Shown here piece by piece: positions 2,807 through 58,842 of a stretch of DNA of 64,000 nt. Location of the stretch: IMG/VR virus record IMGVR_UViG_3300022555_000019. One strand, given 5' to 3'. The notes beneath the pieces were generated by a model. That model was not told the DNA's origin. It did not search any database and saw nothing but the letters and a program-made list of their open reading frames with translations. Position 1 is the stretch's first letter, and the number at the start of each line of letters is the position of its first letter. The DNA is from an uncultured virus (IMG/VR IMGVR_UViG_3300022555_000019). Lineage: Duplodnaviria > Heunggongvirae > Uroviricota > Caudoviricetes. The position numbers and the translations under genes are program-made.

Positions 2807-3086
2807 CGAGCAAATTGCGCCATTAATGGCTAAAATTATTGAAATTTGCAAAAAAGAAGATATTGCAATATTTGCAGAATTCCAAATTGCCGATAACGAT
2901 TTTTGTACTACCTTAATATCAAATAAGAACAAACACCACTGTTTATTTCCGTTACTCAATGCATTAACAAGTTGTATGGAAGGAACTGGTATCAATATTG
3001 ATAAGTTTTATATCTGGCTGTCTCAAAAATATTCAAATAAATCCAGCGTAATTATGAAACTTCTTGGTAAAGAACCAACTGGCTGA
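2781..3086 (+). CDS. hypothetical protein
   Basis: 101 aa ORF in the plus-strand operon. Confidence 0.7.
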   Translation: MENKEKIYDEQIAPLMAKIIEICKKEDIAIFAEFQIADNDFCTTLISNKNKHHCLFPLLNALTSCMEGTGINIDKFYIWLSQKYSNKSSVIMKLLGKEPTG

Positions 3087-3133
3087 TTTTTTTTATTCAC
3101 AAATTTTTTATACTTTTGTAAAAAATAAAAATT

Positions 3134-3736
3134 ATGGAACTACGAATGTTTTTTCTTGTAATGTACAATTTGTCCCCAATTCAGCAGGGAATCCAAGCTG
3201 GGCATTGTGCATTAAGGTATAGTCGCAAATATAAAGATGATGAAACTTTTGGCGATTTTGTTGATAATTATGAAACATTCGTATTGCTTAACGGTGGCAC
3301 ATCCAATTCGGGGTTTATTCAAGAACGGGAAATTGTATACAAAGACGGAACAGTTGATATTAAAGGAGTATATGATGAATTAGCTAAGGGGTCTATGGAA
3401 ATGCATGAAAAATATCTTATTGAAAATAAAATTCCATTTACTGCGTTTCGTGAACCAGATGCCAACAAATCATTAACTGCGCTTTGCTTCATTTGTGATG
3501 AACGAGTCTTTAAAATGAAAGAATACCCACCATTTAAGGATTGGATAAAGGACAACGTTGAATTCATGATAACCCCAGAATTTAATGACCCAGATTTGGA
3601 AATGTTCCTCGATACTGAAGAACCGCCATACAATCACCCAAAGCTTAACGACTTATACATAAAATGGGTAGAATTTATTGGGGGTGCTGAAAACGTTGCA
3701 AAAAAGAATTTAATCCAAGGTAAAAAACTCGCATAA
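3134..3736 (+). CDS. peptidyl-tRNA hydrolase 2 (Pth2)-superfamily protein, phage type
   Basis: YNLSPIQQGIQAGHCA and FREPDANKSLTALCFI motifs; TACTTTTG promoter at 3111. Confidence 0.7.
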   Translation: MELRMFFLVMYNLSPIQQGIQAGHCALRYSRKYKDDETFGDFVDNYETFVLLNGGTSNSGFIQEREIVYKDGTVDIKGVYDELAKGSMEMHEKYLIENKIPFTAFREPDANKSLTALCFICDERVFKMKEYPPFKDWIKDNVEFMITPEFNDPDLEMFLDTEEPPYNHPKLNDLYIKWVEFIGGAENVAKKNLIQGKKLA

Positions 3737-4095
3737 TGTCAAGAGGTGAAAAATTAAAATATCCGTTTGCTATACGTACACTTGAAGAACGAGTCACGTT
3801 AGAAAAGTCATATCTTCCAATATTCAAAAGTAAACTTAGCCAAGCCTTAAAGATTATTGCTGAACATATACGTGAAGATGCAATCGCTGAAGAATTAGCA
3901 TCGGATAGAATGATGGAATGTCATTCCTTTCGTGAATTACCAGCCAGCCCAGTAAATACTAAAGAACTGGATGGTGCTAAAAATACAGTGGAATGGGCAA
4001 ATAAAAACATCGAAAGCTGCGAATATAGAATTACCGAATTGCAAGGCAGTATAGATGCTTTAGAATTATACATCAAAACCGATAAAAATGGATAG
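3736..4095 (+). CDS. hypothetical coiled-coil protein
   Basis: 119 aa; ends in TAG overlapping the next start. Confidence 0.7.
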   Translation: MSRGEKLKYPFAIRTLEERVTLEKSYLPIFKSKLSQALKIIAEHIREDAIAEELASDRMMECHSFRELPASPVNTKELDGAKNTVEWANKNIESCEYRITELQGSIDALELYIKTDKNG

Positions 4096-4570
4096 ACTTA
4101 TCGAAGGTGTATATATTTTTTATATTGATAAGGATTATAGCAATGACAATAATGATCCAGTAAAAAACTTTGCCGAGGCATTTCTTGTAAAAATTATAGG
4201 AACTGCTAAAATTACATCTACAATCACACCAAAACAAGAACAAGATATAACAAATGGAATTTTAAAACTGAGAAATAGTGAAATTCTATATATGATTAAT
4301 TTTCTCTGTGATCACTATTATAACTTAAGCGGTAATAATCCAGAAGTTAAAGCAGCCGAAAGAATATTGGCTAACCCTGCGTTCAACATATATCGTGATA
4401 TTATTTTATTTATGGTTGATGACCCTGATGATCGTGATAAATCATCATACTTAACAATTCAAGAGTATGAAAAAAAGCTCAATATAAAAATATTCTATGA
4501 CGAAAAGGATTACATTAGCGTAAAGCAACAGAGAAAAATGAAATTAGAAAAAATATTTAATAATGAATAG
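4088..4570 (+). CDS. hypothetical protein, paralog of the next gene
   Basis: MDRLIEGVY vs MNRIIDGVY; shared ITPxQEQ, ILKLxNxEILYMI, EKDYI; C-terminal RKMKLEKI. Confidence 0.8.
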   Translation: MDRLIEGVYIFYIDKDYSNDNNDPVKNFAEAFLVKIIGTAKITSTITPKQEQDITNGILKLRNSEILYMINFLCDHYYNLSGNNPEVKAAERILANPAFNIYRDIILFMVDDPDDRDKSSYLTIQEYEKKLNIKIFYDEKDYISVKQQRKMKLEKIFNNE

Positions 4571-7933: not shown

Positions 7934-8002
7934 TTGTTTAAAAATTTTTTTTATAAGAAAAAAGGTTTTACATTTGCATCATTAAACCTAACACAAACTA
8001 AT

Positions 8003-8371
8003 ATGGCAACCGTTTCAAATAAAAAATCCGTTGATAAAGTCGGTGGATGTGCATTTTGCTCACAAGGAGTAATGACAAACGGTCATCTTGTATATCCATA
8101 TGAAAATGAAGGTATCCATGAGCTCCGCAGTAGCGGAAGAGGAAATGTTGTTGTTCCGATTTGCCCCGATTGTTTGGTTGATATTGCAAAATTTGTAAAA
8201 GCAAATGCAGACGTTGAGTTTGCTAAAAATAATCCAGTATTAGCAAAAAGAATAAACGAAATTGAAGATAACATTGAAGATATTAAAAAAACACCAGCAT
8301 TAGCGAAAAAAATGAATGACTCTCTAATGGATTTGCACTCTCTAATGGATTTGCAAAATTTGCTAAAATAA
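8003..8371 (+). CDS. hypothetical protein with CxxC pair
   Basis: ATG at 8003 after TACATTTG promoter (7969); CAFC...CPDC. Confidence 0.7.
   Translation: MATVSNKKSVDKVGGCAFCSQGVMTNGHLVYPYENEGIHELRSSGRGNVVVPICPDCLVDIAKFVKANADVEFAKNNPVLAKRINEIEDNIEDIKKTPALAKKMNDSLMDLHSLMDLQNLLK
8319..8354. repeat. Exact 18-bp tandem duplication
   Basis: ACTCTCTAATGGATTTGC x2, giving DSLMDL-HSLMDL. Confidence 0.9.
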
Positions 8372-8419
8372 ATTTAAACAAACAACAAAAATTAATATAT
8401 AACTCAAAAAACAGAAACT

Positions 8420-8806
8420 ATGACGTAGGTAAAAAAATTAACAATCGTATCAAGACGTGATTTAAGTGCAGGGTACCAAGCTACTCAGGCGGCCCATTCT
8501 TTAGCACAATTTATCTTTGAACACCCAGCAGAAGCTACCCAATGGTTCAAAGACCCATATTTAGCAGTATTATCAGTCCAAAACGAGGAAGAGTTAAATT
8601 CCCTCATTGCTAAATTAGAAAAATCCAAAGTAAAATATTCCATCTTTCGTGAACCTGATATCAACAATCAGATCACAGCAATCGCTATAGAACCATCTGA
8701 TCAAACCAGACGGCTCACATCATCTATTCCCAAAATGTTACGTGAATACAATTTAACTGGATTGATCGATAAAAATTCGTTCCAGAAAGAAGAATGTTTT
8801 AACTAA
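8420..8806 (+). CDS. Pth2-family peptidyl-tRNA hydrolase with in-frame TAG at codon 3 (read-through candidate)
   Basis: ATG ACG TAG then open frame: VKKLTIVSRRDLSAGYQATQAAHSLA...VLSVQNEEELNSL...IFREPDINNQITAIAIEP...TAA. No in-frame ATG/GTG/TTG until near the C-terminus. Missed by the ORF track. Confidence 0.8.
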
Positions 8807-8821
8807 AAGAAAGGAGAAATT

Positions 8822-9181
8822 ATGAACCGTGAAAGACAAAAAGTATCAGTAGATTTAGGTCGGTTAACAATTGCCGAAGATTCAATCGAATCCCTTAAAG
8901 AAACAATCGCTCATTATGAAGAATTAGGTGCCGAAAAATATTACATTGGTGCAGAATGGGACCGATGCGGTGATTATGAAGGCAGCTACATTGAATTCTA
9001 TGGCTATCGGGACGAAACTGATGATGAATACAAAATCCGAATCGAAAGAGAAGAAGCTTATGAAAAGCAACGGATTGAAAACGAAAAAAAGGATGCTGAA
9101 GAAGCAATCAGAAGAAAAAATGAAAAGGATATGAAAGATTTGGAAACATATCTTAAATTGAAAGAAAAATTCGAAAAATAA
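8822..9181 (+). CDS. hypothetical protein
   Basis: 119 aa; preceded by AAAGGAG, one of very few SD-like sites. Confidence 0.75.
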   Translation: MNRERQKVSVDLGRLTIAEDSIESLKETIAHYEELGAEKYYIGAEWDRCGDYEGSYIEFYGYRDETDDEYKIRIEREEAYEKQRIENEKKDAEEAIRRKNEKDMKDLETYLKLKEKFEK

Positions 9182-9198
9182 AAATAAACTAAAAAAGA

Positions 9199-9234
9199 AA
9201 GGAGGTTGTTATGTCATAGATCAGATCGCCATAA
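9199..9234 (+). other. Strong SD plus two-codon minigene ATG-TCA-TAG (read-through gives MSxIRSP)
   Basis: AAGGAGG-TTGTT-ATG TCA TAG ATC AGA TCG CCA TAA. Confidence 0.5.
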
Positions 9235-9308
9235 AATGTGCTTCCATTAAAATAGAGCACAAAAAAATTCAAATAAAAAATTAAATTCAAACAAAAAAAA
9301 TTAAATAT

Positions 9309-9773
9309 ATGGAAGCAACAATTAAAAGTAGAGTTGAATACACTTATGATAAAGTGATCCTCGCAGCCAAAATTAATAGTACCATTGAAAACATTGAAAA
9401 ATGGATTGCCGCAAATGAATATCGTGTGATTGGAAAATTTCCGACAAAAGAACTCTTATCAGATCAACGGGTTGGAATTTATGCCGCTGCATGGTCAAAC
9501 ATTTCAAAGTCCAAGATGAAGGAAATTCAGAAAAGAATCATCTGGATTGAACGAAAAATGACACTCAGGAACGTCAATTCATTCTTAAATTTACTTTCCA
9601 AAATATTTGGATGTGATAAAGTTCAGGTCAAAATTTCCTACAAGGAAGAACAAATCCAAATCGCAAGAAAGCAATGGGTGAAAGCCAAAGAAGAAGCTGA
9701 AAGGTTACTCGCTGTGTACAAATTTCAAAAAGGCGATTTTTACAAGAAAACTGTAAATAATCTGACTAAGTAA
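9309..9773 (+). CDS. hypothetical protein
   Basis: 154 aa basic protein. Confidence 0.75.
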   Translation: MEATIKSRVEYTYDKVILAAKINSTIENIEKWIAANEYRVIGKFPTKELLSDQRVGIYAAAWSNISKSKMKEIQKRIIWIERKMTLRNVNSFLNLLSKIFGCDKVQVKISYKEEQIQIARKQWVKAKEEAERLLAVYKFQKGDFYKKTVNNLTK

Positions 9774-9804
9774 AAAATCGTGTGGGTGAAATTCCCACAC
9801 ATAC

Positions 9805-9941
9805 GGGGGATTGCAAGCTCTGAAAAGAAAAGTACGCCAGTAACACGTGAAATGCTGGCACAGGATACTCAGAAGAGAGGATGCAGACAAATTCTGTTGC
9901 AACAGAAGATTACGTTGGAGGTTCGATCCCTTCATCACCCA
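9805..9941 (+). ncRNA. tRNA-like RNA 1 (acceptor stem + T-arm, non-tRNA interior)
   Basis: GGGGGAT/ATCACCC-A (one mismatch); T-arm GGAGG-TTCGATC-CCTTC; internal hairpins GCCAGTA/TGCTGGC and TTCTGTTGCAACAGAA. Confidence 0.65.
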
Positions 9942-9952
9942 CAACAAAATAC

Positions 9953-10094
9953 GGGGTATTGCAACTCCAAGTTGAAGGTATGCTATAATAATTACGTAAT
10001 AAAAAGCAGAGAATAAAACAGCGGTGTGGTGCAACTCAGCCGAAGCCGTTGCGCAACGGTGGATGAGAGGGAGGTTCGAATCCTTCATACCTCA
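9953..10094 (+). ncRNA. tRNA-like RNA 2 (acceptor stem + T-arm, non-tRNA interior)
   Basis: GGGGTAT/ATACCTC-A; T-arm GGAGG-TTCGAAT-CCTTC; palindrome CCGTTGCGCAACGG; shares 5' ATACGGGGnATTGCAA with RNA 1. Confidence 0.65.
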
Positions 10095-10097
10095 CAT

Positions 10098-10171
10098 GAT
10101 TCTGTAGCTCAGTTGGTAGAGCAACTGTCCCTAAAATAGTTGGTCGTTGGGTTCGAGTCCCACCAGAATCT
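10098..10171 (+). tRNA. tRNA with CUA anticodon (amber suppressor candidate 1)
   Basis: Acceptor GATTCTG/CAGAATC; D-arm GCTC-AGTTGGTA-GAGC; anticodon arm ACTGT-CCCTAAA-ATAGT (CTA 10131-10133, C at position 33); T-loop TTCGAGT with one extra T in the T-stem; no encoded CCA. Confidence 0.8.
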
Positions 10172-10880
10172 CATTTTTTTTATAATATAATAACCATTTA
10201 GAAATAGATGCCCAAGAAACTCCGTACTTTTTAGCAACAGCATTTTGGCTTGTCGTACTTATTTCTTCGATGAGCTTTTTGTATGGCGGTCTTTCAACTT
10301 TTCTTTGAGATTTTGAATAACAATCAAAGCACATTTTTGATGAATGATATATAGGCTTTCCACATTCACAATCTTTTATTCGTTTTTCTTTCCGTTTTTC
10401 TTTTTTTTGTGCTGATGGCTTATTTTTACCAGAGAATGTCCCTGTTTGAGAATGACAATTTGGGCAAATAAAACATAAATTTACTAATCTATTATCGTTA
10501 TTTATACCATTTTTATGCTCAAGTTGTAATATTAATTTTTTTCCATTCCACATTCCATCATTTCCACAATTGCATTTATATTCCAATAGATTATCTTTTA
10601 TTAATTGTTTCTTTAAATATCCCCTCGAAACAGAAGAATTTTCAACAAGTAGTTCTTCAATCTTACGTTTTCTTCCAAAGTTAGCATATTTACCAAAATA
10701 ATTGTATACTGGAATAGGAATACCACGTCTTTTTAATTCGTTTTTTACTGTTTGAAAACTGCCTGTTGTAACAGAATTATATCCAACATATCTTACAATA
10801 TCACTGAAAGATTTAGAATTATTTATCAACTCTAATAAATCATCATTTGAAAATTTGGTAAGCTTATTTTTTCTTCCCAT
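10131..10880 (-). CDS. HNH homing endonuclease
   Basis: CNCGNDGMWNGKKLILQLEHKNGINNDNRLVNLCFICPNCHSQT; C-terminal zinc finger and HTH. ATG at 10880. Its TAG stop is the complement of the tRNA anticodon. Confidence 0.9.
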   Translation of the reverse strand: MGRKNKLTKFSNDDLLELINNSKSFSDIVRYVGYNSVTTGSFQTVKNELKRRGIPIPVYNYFGKYANFGRKRKIEELLVENSSVSRGYLKKQLIKDNLLEYKCNCGNDGMWNGKKLILQLEHKNGINNDNRLVNLCFICPNCHSQTGTFSGKNKPSAQKKEKRKEKRIKDCECGKPIYHSSKMCFDCYSKSQRKVERPPYKKLIEEISTTSQNAVAKKYGVSWASISKWLLYYKKNEILVGLEPNDQLF

Positions 10881-10987
10881 AAATTTTTTATTTGTATATA
10901 TAAATATATAAAACCGACAATTTATCAATATTTAAATCCATTATGGGTTCTATTTTTTTATTAGAAAATTATTCTTATATTTGCATC

Positions 10988-11056
10988 GATTCTGTCTGCT
11001 GGAATAGAAATAAAACTCTAAATTTTATAACGTGGGTTCGAGCCCCACCAGAATCA
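10988..11056 (+). tRNA. compact tRNA with CUA anticodon (amber suppressor candidate 2)
   Basis: Acceptor GATTCTG/CAGAATC-A; short D-arm TCTG-CTGGAA-TAGA; ATAAAA-CTCTAAA-TTTTAT (CTA 11018-11020); variable AAC; GTGGG-TTCGAGC-CCCAC; TATATTTG promoter at 10976-10983. Confidence 0.75.
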
Positions 11057-11072
11057 CAAAAATATAATAACT

Positions 11073-11720
11073 ATGATAACAATTGAAGAAGTTGTCAAAT
11101 CATTTCATGATAATCAAGTAATGGATTATAAGGAATGGTTAGCAAAAATAATTGAAGAAAATTCTGGTGCTGGTGGAAACACCGAAATTTTAAACTTTCT
11201 AAGAGTTTGGAAGCCTAAAATTGGAATCCTATGCGGGAGCTTCAACATGTTTCATAGCGGTCATATGAATATTCTGCTTAAAGCTGAAAAAATTTTCGAC
11301 AAAGTAATATTATGCGTTGGTATTAATCCAGAAAAACGTGTAGATTTTCCAACTGATGGTATCCCAAAAACACTTCACAAAACAAGGCAGGTCCTAACAT
11401 ATACAAGCACATTACCAGCTTTAATTGAGGGTTTCGGATATGATGTAACTCTTATTCGTGGGCTGAGAAACAGTACTGATCTTAAATATGAACTCAAACA
11501 ACTTCGTTACATGCAAGATTTCAAATCTGATATCAGTGTAATTAACATATGCTGTGATAGGGAGTTCGAACATATTGCATCTTCAGATATCAGAAATAAT
11601 ATTAGCGCATTTGGTACCTATCATCGTAGTCCTTATGAAAATAAAGATAACTGTGATGCCTTCAGAAAAAAAATTGCAGAAAAATATTTACCATTCCCAC
11701 TTTCAGAATATTCATTATGA
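11073..11720 (+). CDS. coaD: phosphopantetheine adenylyltransferase-like (CoaD)
   Basis: GSFNMFHSGH (HxGH), KIFDKVILCVGINPEK, LIRGLRNSTD, HIASSDIR. Confidence 0.8.
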   Translation: MITIEEVVKSFHDNQVMDYKEWLAKIIEENSGAGGNTEILNFLRVWKPKIGILCGSFNMFHSGHMNILLKAEKIFDKVILCVGINPEKRVDFPTDGIPKTLHKTRQVLTYTSTLPALIEGFGYDVTLIRGLRNSTDLKYELKQLRYMQDFKSDISVINICCDREFEHIASSDIRNNISAFGTYHRSPYENKDNCDAFRKKIAEKYLPFPLSEYSL

Positions 11721-42058: not shown

Positions 42059-43273
42059 ATGAAAAGTTATCAAATAAGATTTTTTCCAACATTAAATCAA
42101 GCACTTCAATTACAAGAATTATCTGATATTCGTAAAGATATCTGGAATACACTTTGCGATATTCAACAGCAAGAATATACAACTTCAAAAAAAATATTGA
42201 GTAAATTTGACTTGAATAATTTGCTCCCAAAATTAAAAGAGCCACATTCAGCTTGGAAAAAATTGAATGCTAAAGCTGAACAAACAATATCAACTGAATT
42301 ATATGGGGCATACCAATCATTCTTTAGATTAATTAAAAAAGATAAAACAGCAAAGCCGCCAAATAAAATTGATAATAATGATTTTCATTCAATCACGTTT
42401 AACCAATCTGGATGGGTCGTTAAATCAGATAATCTAATACAGATTAACAAAATACAATTTGAATATAGATCACACTTAAATATTCAAGAAATGATTATAA
42501 AAGAAATTAGAATCAAATTTATAAATAATAAATGGTTATGTGATTTGATTGTTGATGAACCAATAAATTATAAAAATAAATTGATTATTAAAACCAAAGT
42601 ATTAGCATTAGACCTCGGAATTGAAAAACTTGCGCATGGAATAGATAACAAGGGTGATCAAGTTATTTTGCAAAACAAATCCAGACGAATCAACCATTAT
42701 TTTCAGAGCCAAATAAAAAATGTTCAATCAAAATTATCTAAAAAACAAAAAAACTCAAGAAATCGTAAAAAAATAAAATCTACTTTAAATAAACTATATC
42801 AAAAAAAGAATGCACAAGTAAAACAAACTTTACATATTCAAAGTAAATATTTAGCGAATATGAATTACAATACTATTGTAATTGGTGATTTATCAGTTAA
42901 AAAATTAATGTCAACTGAAGGCGTAAACTCAAAGAAAAAAGGTATTAGAAAATCATTTCACCATTCTAATATCAATATGTTTTTACAATTTCTTGGATAT
43001 AAATGTCAACACAATAATACAAATGTTGTTACAATTGGTGAACAATGGACAACTCAGCTTAATTGTTTAACTGGTAAGGTATTCAAAGATAAAATAGAAC
43101 TTAAAGATAGGCAAGTTCAATTATCTGATAAAATCACTATTGATCGTGACTTAAACTCAGCCATAAATATTTTGAAACGATGGTTTGATAGTCATATTGC
43201 TTCTATGAACGAGCCTCTGGATTTATCCAGTGCTCTTGTAAAGTTCAATCTTTACAAGGAAACATTAATGTAG
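42059..43273 (+). mobile_element. tnpB: solo TnpB with rearranged RuvC-II
   Basis: SYQIRFFPT, LALDLG (RuvC-I), IVIGDL plus downstream IGEQWTTQ, DRDLNSAINI (RuvC-III); opposite strand to the surrounding operon; no tnpA. Confidence 0.9.
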
Positions 43274-58467: not shown

Positions 58468-58842
58468 TTAAATATTGTGTAATCCCTTACCTTCATTTGA
58501 ATGACTTAAACTAATCATTTTTGGTGTTTCTTGGTTGTTTCGTTTCTGATATAATTGATTCAATCCACCAGCTATTCCCCGTTTACAAATCTCCGAAAAG
58601 TATGTGAACGGGGATGAATATCTTTTTTCATTGAATCCTTTCCAATTTTGGAACATTGATAATATTCCTTGCTGCATGCAATCAAATTTATCTTCCTGTG
58701 TTTTATATCGTCTATCGAATTTTTTTATCATTTCTTCACCAATTTTTATTAGCATTCTTTCGGTTTTTTTGGTCAGTCTTCCTCGGCCCTTAGAAACAAC
58801 AATTTCAAAGTAGAATTCTGTATCATCTACATATCTTGGCAT
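58468..58842 (-). CDS. late-transcription sigma factor (T4 gp55-like)
   Basis: RYVDDTEF, DCMQQGI, FNEKRYSSPFTYFSEIC. Confidence 0.75.
   Translation of the reverse strand: MPRYVDDTEFYFEIVVSKGRGRLTKKTERMLIKIGEEMIKKFDRRYKTQEDKFDCMQQGILSMFQNWKGFNEKRYSSPFTYFSEICKRGIAGGLNQLYQKRNNQETPKMISLSHSNEGKGLHNI

Follow-up and report, generated by a model that had tools for sequence, protein, structure and literature searches.

An early amber codon in a Pth2-fold gene of large tailed phages is conserved and linked to genes for CUA-anticodon tRNAs

The window studied here is a stretch of 64,000 nucleotides (nt) from the uncultured virus IMGVR_UViG_3300022555_000019 (Caudoviricetes), and the element in question is a small gene at positions 8420-8806, coding for a protein with the fold seen in Pth2, a peptidyl-tRNA hydrolase, and carrying an in-frame amber codon at codon 3. 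Judging from comparison with relatives, this codon is a genuine, conserved gate linked to genes for tRNAs with a CUA anticodon (tRNA-CUA). Expression of the hydrolase is probably dependent on a suppressor tRNA, in what would be an AND gate with a late-type promoter, although the read-through itself is deduced from sequence.

Results

Anatomy of the gate

The features around the gene are the following.

8393..8402, + strand: promoter-like 10-mer TAATATATAA, ending 17 nt before ATG 8420 (from its recurrence in the window)
8420..8428, + strand: start codon, one sense codon and amber gate (ATG 8420-8422, ACG 8423-8425, TAG 8426-8428; from the sequence)
8429..8806, + strand: 125-codon Pth2-fold domain with its TAA stop (8804-8806; from PF01981, a PDB profile match, AlphaFold2 and Foldseek)
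10098-10172, + strand: tRNA with anticodon CUA, copy 1, with a good D arm and the loop CCCUAAA, in which position 33 is C (ARAGORN; Rfam 55.6 bits)
10131..10928, - strand: HNH endonuclease gene between the tRNA-CUA copies (phrog_10822, E 3.4e-37)
10988-11057, + strand: tRNA with anticodon CUA, copy 2, with the canonical loop CUCUAAA and a weak, degenerate D arm (ARAGORN; Rfam 41.4 bits)

A preliminary description of this DNA, made from the sequence alone, had reported ATG-ACG-TAG followed by an intact 125-codon Pth2-like frame with no alternative standard start, and this is what the locus contains: the earliest in-frame ATG, GTG or TTG 3' of the TAG is codon 102, and no open reading frame (ORF) of at least 40 amino acids is found on the + strand at the gate locus under the standard bacterial code (code 11). 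The codon right after the TAG is GTA, which is not a known start codon. Frameshifting at the run of seven A after the TAG was considered and rejected, since on reading of the sequence neither of the alternative frames has an upstream start.

The TAG is a reliable feature of the DNA. A viral record of 23 kb (G001/L002) matches positions 8000-11200 with 100% identity, and Logan contigs from two further studies span 8426-8428 with 0 differences (X4, covering 8059-9200, and X7, covering 8000-8495), so that an assembly slip is not the source of the codon; the preliminary description had proposed checking the reads at these three positions. The stretch was recovered in sequencing runs from freshwater and lake metagenomes, none of them an RNA run. 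With a GC (guanine plus cytosine) content of 0.31 it codes for a terminase, portal, major head protein, prohead protease, baseplate wedge protein and a gp55-like late sigma factor, and on the strength of these structural and gp55-like genes it is identified as part of a large tailed phage.

Over the 64 kb seen, this phage otherwise uses the standard code. Among 89 greedily chosen ORFs in the window, 48 end in TAA, 31 in TGA and 10 in TAG; code 11 ORFs pack tightly and give a coding cover of 0.93, against 0.90 when TAG is read as sense. TAG is also the rarest of the stop triplets on the + strand (586, with 2219 TAA and 1217 TGA). When each TAG in the window followed by at least 60 open codons was screened, TAG 8426 was the only one with an ATG two codons upstream and a long start-less frame downstream, and its uniqueness in the window, together with the persistence of the pattern in relatives, makes the gate more than a chance arrangement. 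Only the gene at 8420-8806 requires read-through of TAG in the window, and four TAG-ended ORFs extended through their stops gained parts without any family match. A genome-wide reassignment of TAG (code 15) was thus rejected, on account of the ten ORFs ending in TAG, the single gene needing read-through and the denser coding under code 11.

The same data bear on the idea that the gene is a pseudogene, that the TAG is a sequencing error or that TAG is sense throughout the genome. A stop at codon 3 normally marks a dead gene, and frameshifts do occur in the copies of two relatives (L038 and L039/L040, see below). Against this stand the recurrence of the TAG in contigs from independent studies, the intact frame behind it, the stops and coding density just described, and a strong conservation of the domain, in whose alignment, made from 43 homologues, 7 columns are invariant and 16 nearly so. 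We find this explanation hardly credible.

Conservation of the gate among relatives

An initial scan of viral contigs yielded 49 loci, and a short ATG-X-TAG lies ahead of the domain in nearly all of the AT-rich relatives among them. A profile scan then gave 226 relatives, of which the best 80 were used together with 22 loci of the first scan; merging those identical over the first 300 nt left 81 variants, which fall into four classes.

ATG, 1-5 codons and TAG, with no ATG, GTG or TTG before the conserved KL anchor: 71 variants, 57 with tRNA-CUA in the locus
Ordinary start without an in-frame stop: 7 variants, 0 with a matching suppressor tRNA
Ordinary ATG with an internal TAG: 2 variants, both with tRNA-CUA
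ATG ACG TAA: 1 variant (L038), with tRNA-UUA

The arrangement seen in the window, whose conservation the preliminary description had proposed to examine, is therefore that of 71 of the 81 distinct relatives. The gated variants diverge to about 20% pairwise identity, and of the 34 clusters formed by single linkage at 70% amino-acid identity, 29 are wholly gated. The upstream start codon is ATG in 71/71, and the base 3' of the TAG is always a purine (A in 57, G in 14). The codon after the TAG specifies Ile or Val in 61/71, the non-start codons GTA and GTT being among them, and at the matching position the ungated homologues have M-A-T-I/V-K. The gating stop is TAG in 71 cases, TAA in one and TGA in none, in DNA with a mean GC of 0.32, and the TAG lies no more than 5 codons from the ATG in 71 of the 73 variants that carry one. 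The last sense codon before it is variable (18 different codons, with Thr in 26/71). Forty of the 55 homologues fetched from a protein collection start with M-x-Q, which is probably the work of gene callers reading TAG as Q and is not protein evidence.

Ungated genes (beginning MATIKMGDKL...) are found in the GC-rich relatives L019, L021, L026, L029, L033 and L034 (GC 0.50-0.57). Among their neighbours are tRNAs whose anticodon loops have 8 nt and contain UCA (for example AUUUCAAC and ACUUCAAG), and these tRNAs could be opal suppressors; the L037 genome has a tRNA with the same type of loop and CUA in it (AUUCUAAC). In L039/L040, two records of one phage, the copy at 3989-4344 is decayed, having a 1-nt deletion as well as extra in-frame stops, and no tRNA-CUA was found within 4 kb of it; gene and tRNA may have been lost jointly.

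Linkage to CUA-anticodon tRNAs

The preliminary description had placed two CUA-anticodon tRNAs 1.3-2.2 kb downstream of the gene and tied the gate to them. They lie 1.29 and 2.18 kb past the gene end, and the association extends to the relatives: with 3-4 kb fetched on each side of the gene, tRNA-CUA genes were found at 57/71 gated loci vs 0/7 ungated ones (Fisher p 4.4e-5). All of the linked tRNA-CUA genes (69/69) are on the strand of the hydrolase gene, lying 129-148 nt upstream of it or 0.3-3.2 kb downstream. The fetched range held no tRNA-CUA at 14 gated loci; six of these were followed further, and one proved to have the tRNA at +3.6 kb in a larger locus. In the genomes G002 and G005, tRNA-CUA lies 3.3 kb and 5.7 kb from the gene, respectively, and G004 has a tRNA with the 8-nt loop AUUCUAAC.

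The only gate made by another stop, the TAA of L038, adjoins a tRNA-UUA, and no close relatives of L038 were found. TGA and TAA gates were also sought in phages for which UCA or UUA suppressors have been reported: the PTH2 genes of RaK2 and Atu_ph07 are canonical and ungated, and FBKp24 has no PTH2 match.

The two tRNA-CUA copies of the window share the acceptor stem GATTCTG and differ in the rest. In copy 1, C replaces the near-universal U at position 33, as it does in the tRNA of L027. The listed TTG start of the intervening HNH gene overlaps tRNA copy 1, and its true start is probably further in. Paired tRNA-CUA genes also occur in relatives, where they are direct neighbours (separated by 6-9 nt in L005 and L006). 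The nearest paralogue of the tRNA-CUA is tRNA-Lys(UUU), at 72% and 62%, in two tRNA-rich genomes; in others the nearest paralogues are scattered. An initiator-type tRNA reading UAG was considered as well and rejected, as both tRNAs have a paired 1:72 position and their anticodon stems lack a G-C run.

Two side observations concern the surroundings of these tRNAs. Beside the tRNA-CUA genes of L004 (2421-2501) and L006 (6989-7068) is an odd tRNA with an enlarged anticodon loop containing UUA, which could be an ochre reader. Directly upstream of tRNA copy 1 in the window (9778-10097, + strand) are two tRNA-like elements with a long stem joining the 5' and 3' ends and a T-arm-like hairpin GGAGGTTCGAxCC; their fold z-scores are -2.87 and -1.11, and neither ARAGORN nor Rfam makes a call in this interval.

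Translation start and promoter-like motif

The short motif noted earlier ahead of the gene (AATATATA, at 8394-8401) is part of a recurring promoter-like 10-mer, TAATATATAA. The window has 8 exact copies of the 10-mer vs 1.78 expected, a number reached in 0/100 shuffles, at positions 8393, 24571, 49519, 53950, 56290, 57036, 60518 and 63717. All eight are upstream of genes in the sense orientation, mostly structural ones; the seven other than that at 8393 are on the - strand and precede an 891-amino-acid gene, an HNH gene, the prohead protease, the portal, two further genes and an ATPase. Four copies (those of portal, prohead protease, ATPase and the 891-amino-acid gene) stand 20-21 nt before the start. 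The 10-mer resembles a T4-type late promoter, a function that we infer from its sequence and placement, and the window also codes for a sigma factor of the late type.

58468-58842: gp55-like late sigma factor

A Shine-Dalgarno motif within 22 nt 5' of the ATG was found at 16/71 gated loci, and in 16/16 it ends 5-8 nt before the gate ATG, too far from the codon that follows the TAG. Together with the spacing of TAATATATAA, this makes ATG 8420 the likely translation start and groups the gene with the late structural genes.

Other arrangements and cultured phages

In a subgroup of relatives with a normal ATG (M-x-K-L-Y-V-L), three lineages have a single TAG within the domain (codon 34, 46 or 69) and a tRNA-CUA 3' of the gene, at 6-16 nt in two of them and about 0.45 kb in the third. 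Two further lineages of this subgroup have neither a TAG nor a tRNA-CUA. L220 (GC 0.57) shows yet another arrangement, with a start-less domain in frame behind the TAG of an upstream ORF and a tRNA-CUA behind the gene. In an uncultured phage of 735 kb, AAGGAG is followed by nine bases and ATG TCG TAG, and two tRNA-CUA genes are present.

The pattern is also present in cultured phages. Tenacibaculum phage pT24 has ATG AAA TAG ATA, with an annotated tRNA-Sup 2.6 kb upstream and the coding sequence annotated from a later codon. Among mycobacteriophages, Bxz1 and Cane17 have ATG TAG GTG, while Myrna and ScoobyDoobyDoo have GTG TAG GTG; a tRNA-CUA lies 130-300 nt downstream in all four, annotated as tRNA-OTHER or tRNA-Pyl.

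The Pth2-like protein

The fold of the protein is predicted to be that of Pth2 by several comparisons. Residues 3-92 match Pfam PTH2 (PF01981) with E 1.5e-7 and 32 bits, the cut-off being 23, and the 125-residue product of the frame behind the TAG also matches phrog_1866 (E 2.4e-13). Searched against PDB sequences, the family profile finds the Pth2 chains 2zv3, 1rzw, 1wn2, 1q7s and 1xty with E 3e-7 to 0.01, the archaeal 2zv3 at 3e-7. The AlphaFold2 model has a mean predicted local distance difference test score (pLDDT) of 91.9 and a predicted template modelling score (pTM) of 0.83; Foldseek ranks 1-13 for it are all Pth2 structures, archaeal and human ones best, with E 5e-7 to 6e-5 and template modelling (TM) scores of 0.54-0.79 (0.66-0.79 for the top hits). 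The first beta strand of the model is formed by residues 4-9, so the domain would start right after the gate.

The catalytic residues of Pth2 are the Lys of a G-K motif and an Asp in an R-D-A-G segment. In alignment with 2zv3, the column of the Asp is taken by an invariant E75, followed by an invariant D77, and Q20 and H23 are kept. Peptidyl- or N-blocked aminoacyl-tRNAs are the likeliest substrates, and the suppressor tRNA itself could be one, given that its gene adjoins the hydrolase gene in ungated lineages too.

In some relatives the Pth2-like domain is fused to a domain of about 190 amino acids that is weakly HD-like (HGLSV..., HDxGKP..., HFPNHA; Pfam HD E 0.05), located C-terminally in L051 (pT24, 3001-3903) and L014, and N-terminally in the Xanthomonas and Stenotrophomonas phages, L054 (Xoo-sp13, 3461-4303) and L055 (RAS14). 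The fusion fits work on tRNA ends; no copy of the HD-like domain was found within the window. An RNA 2'-phosphotransferase (Tpt1/KptA; 838-1434, + strand, Pfam E 6.7e-44), which is an RNA-end-processing enzyme, belongs to the same + strand block as the gated gene. In a 200-amino-acid protein (3134-3736, + strand), the first 58 residues match the opening part of phrog_3668 'hydrolase', for which the gated protein gives a match too; Pfam has no match for this protein, and BLAST finds no similarity between it and the gated gene. Further away, a transposase-like gene (42059-43273, + strand, phrog_506, E 3.7e-60) ends in TAG and stands alone amid sugar-modification genes of the - strand.

Discussion

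Probable dependence of expression on a suppressor tRNA

The explanation that we consider probable is that the hydrolase is expressed through suppression of its amber codon. Translation would begin at ATG 8420 and reach the UAG at codon 3, and the full-length protein would need a phage tRNA-CUA (10098 or 10988) that has been transcribed, matured and charged by a host synthetase, and that outcompetes release factor 1 (RF1); when suppression fails, a dipeptide would be released. Since TAATATATAA precedes the gene as it does the portal, protease and other structural genes, the gene would have two inputs, namely transcription of the late type and a suppressor tRNA that is active, which amounts to an AND gate or coherent feed-forward loop. 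Such a gate would hold the enzyme off until the tRNA works, and would limit its level. The amino acid inserted at the UAG, the promoter role of the motif and the substrate of the enzyme are the parts of this explanation that go beyond what is seen directly.

Several observations weigh against it. ATT, a weak start codon, directly follows the TAG in 48/71 gated variants. In all four mycobacteriophages, the GTG directly after the TAG is the annotated start, and it is preceded by GAAGG or GGAGG at 7 nt in Bxz1, Cane17 and Myrna (ScoobyDoobyDoo has AGGGGC there); this GTG may serve as a start without read-through, and the gate is ambiguous in these phages. Two gated genomes gave no tRNA-CUA: G003 (35% complete), among 33 tRNAs, and G006 (complete, 360 kb, with terminal repeats), neither among the 48 tRNAs called by ARAGORN nor in a pattern scan; Rfam has 53 tRNA matches in G006, five of them outside this check. 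The pairing of TAA with tRNA-UUA is that of one contig, L038, whose gene has a 1-nt deletion in an A run. In the normal-ATG subgroup, L215, L217 and L218 have an adjacent tRNA-CUA and no TAG in the gene, so the pairing does not rest on the gate alone and the TAG could partly be tolerated drift. Lastly, in the 2zv3 alignment the column of the archaeal G-K Lys holds Y16, which varies among family members (Y, A, S, T, Q or L), and the substrate may therefore not be peptidyl-tRNA.

The first two of these points and the result for G006 speak for an upstream ORF, i.e. a tiny ATG-X-TAG frame with the hydrolase re-initiated or non-canonically initiated at the next codon (ATT, or GTG in the mycobacteriophages) and the tRNA-CUA unrelated or acting as a modulator. 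The preliminary description had itself contrasted its reading with initiation at a downstream non-standard codon. None of the outcomes that it named as refuting was seen, the TAG recurring in independent contigs and, beside suppressor tRNAs, in relatives; there is no standard downstream start, although ATT is next to the TAG in many variants. However, the next codon is not a known start in 22/71 variants (GTA in 9, AAC in 4, GTT in 3, AGC in 2, and GGC, AGA, AAT and GGT in 1 each). Any stop would serve an upstream ORF, yet 71/72 gates use TAG in AT-rich DNA where TAA is the commonest stop, and the linkage to tRNA-CUA, the TAGs at codons 34, 46 and 69 and the fusion in L220 would all be left unexplained. 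We thus regard this alternative as quite unlikely for the family as a whole, re-initiation being possible in the part of it that has ATT or GTG after the TAG.

Tolerated drift toward recoding, in which a change from sense to TAG is near neutral beside a co-expressed suppressor tRNA and has no regulatory role, would account for the varying position of the TAG among lineages and for the three that have the tRNA without a TAG. It would also agree with a published path to recoding that begins with the acquisition of a suppressor tRNA (bioRxiv 10.1101/2021.08.26.457843, in the portion available). Drift would, however, scatter TAGs across genes and positions, whereas only one gene of the window has one, and in relatives the TAG nearly always lies in the first codons and is kept down to about 20% pairwise identity. 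It is a very improbable explanation.

The preliminary description had further proposed a dual switch, with the locus acting as a minigene comparable to bar of phage lambda, loading dipeptidyl-tRNA when there is no suppression, and yielding Pth when there is suppression or when RF1 is limiting. Such a switch is a special case of the gate, compatible with suppressor-dependent expression. The frame before the gate is 1-5 codons long in 71/71 variants, a length range at which drop-off by minigenes occurs according to the excerpts available of two papers (PMC2490762, PMC10192219), and the product has the Pth2 fold. The last sense codon is not fixed, however, and in three lineages the TAG is at a depth where no minigene would form, while in another it comes after a whole upstream ORF. 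The low cost of abortive translation explains an early gate equally well. We hold the dual switch to be decidedly unlikely.

A more speculative extension of suppressor-dependent expression is that tRNA and hydrolase together form a self-contained controller of UAG decoding, for which we see a small but real chance. The enzyme, made by read-through of UAG, would act on acylated or peptidyl suppressor tRNA or on ribosomes held at UAG, and read-through would thereby set its own level, as a phage counterpart of the autoregulation of release factor 2 (RF2). That the two genes remain next to each other where a gate is missing suggests an enzyme acting with or on tRNA-CUA. If true, such a controller would explain both the 'orphan' suppressor tRNAs of standard-code phages and the adjacency that persists after loss of the gate.

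Comparison with known systems

The lambda bar minigene acts via a specific last codon in hosts limited for Pth, and shares no reading frame with a Pth gene. The present locus resembles it in having a few codons and a stop tied to the biology of peptidyl-tRNA hydrolase, and differs in its variable last codon and in the continuity of the gate with the frame of the enzyme. The prfB gene for RF2 has an early in-frame UGA and is autoregulated through a +1 frameshift that senses its own product. Both are cases of an early in-frame stop in a translation-factor gene whose expression depends on how that stop is read, but here the frame is unchanged, a tRNA would read the stop, and feedback of the hydrolase on UAG decoding is only a candidate.

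In code 15 phages (crAss-like, Lak and other gut phages, with TAG read as Gln), the timing of tRNA-CUA is thought to control TAG-bearing genes, according to the parts available of two reports (bioRxiv 10.1101/2021.08.26.457843, PMC9523058). A phage-encoded tRNA-CUA for in-frame TAG is common to both situations. Those phages have TAGs scattered in many late genes and a poor coding density under the standard code, whereas here the code is standard, TAG still terminates, and one TAG lies near the start of one small gene. The words 'peptidyl' and 'hydrolase' have 0 occurrences in the recoding preprint (bioRxiv 10.1101/2021.08.26.457843).

One system of matching design is synthetic. In the engineered 'leak dampener' (Ho et al. 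2020, PMC7969014), as described in the accessible sections, an amber codon directly after the start and a co-regulated suppressor tRNA abolish the leaky expression of toxic genes in E. coli, the amber near the start and the suppressor tRNA again forming a coherent feed-forward loop. The arrangement described here is natural and conserved, and co-regulation of tRNA and gene is suggested by their adjacency and the shared motif. Availability of one dedicated tRNA also gates a gene carrying its rare codon in Streptomyces, where bldA tRNA-Leu(UAA) acts on the UUA-bearing adpA (PMC10732093, in the sections at hand); there the tRNA decodes a sense codon and is itself a developmental regulator of the host, whereas here a phage tRNA linked in cis would decode a stop.

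PTH2 proteins of the same fold family have been described in jumbo phages, with a proposed role in freeing tRNAs during ribosome rescue (Iyer et al. 2021, PMC7824862, from the text available, in which 'suppressor' has 0 occurrences), but the genes of RaK2 and Atu_ph07 have normal starts. Phage XacN1 has two tRNA-CUA genes whose targets its authors did not find, as well as a Pth gene, as stated in the available part of the paper (PMC5852040). In the full-text literature searched, which did not extend to subscription journals and supplementary files, no description of an amber gate on this hydrolase was found.

Significance

The same pairing of gene and tRNA recurs in dozens of unrelated large phages. 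Many standard-code phages have stop-reading tRNAs that lack a known target, and a conserved single-gene target makes the question of their role testable, with Tenacibaculum phage pT24 and more than 200 records of cluster C mycobacteriophages as culturable systems. The gate also flags a systematic annotation error, since the gated gene is truncated, shifted to a later start or missed. If read as proposed, it would be a natural counterpart of a circuit that synthetic biologists built independently, and it may represent the earliest stage in a move away from the standard code to the recoding of TAG.

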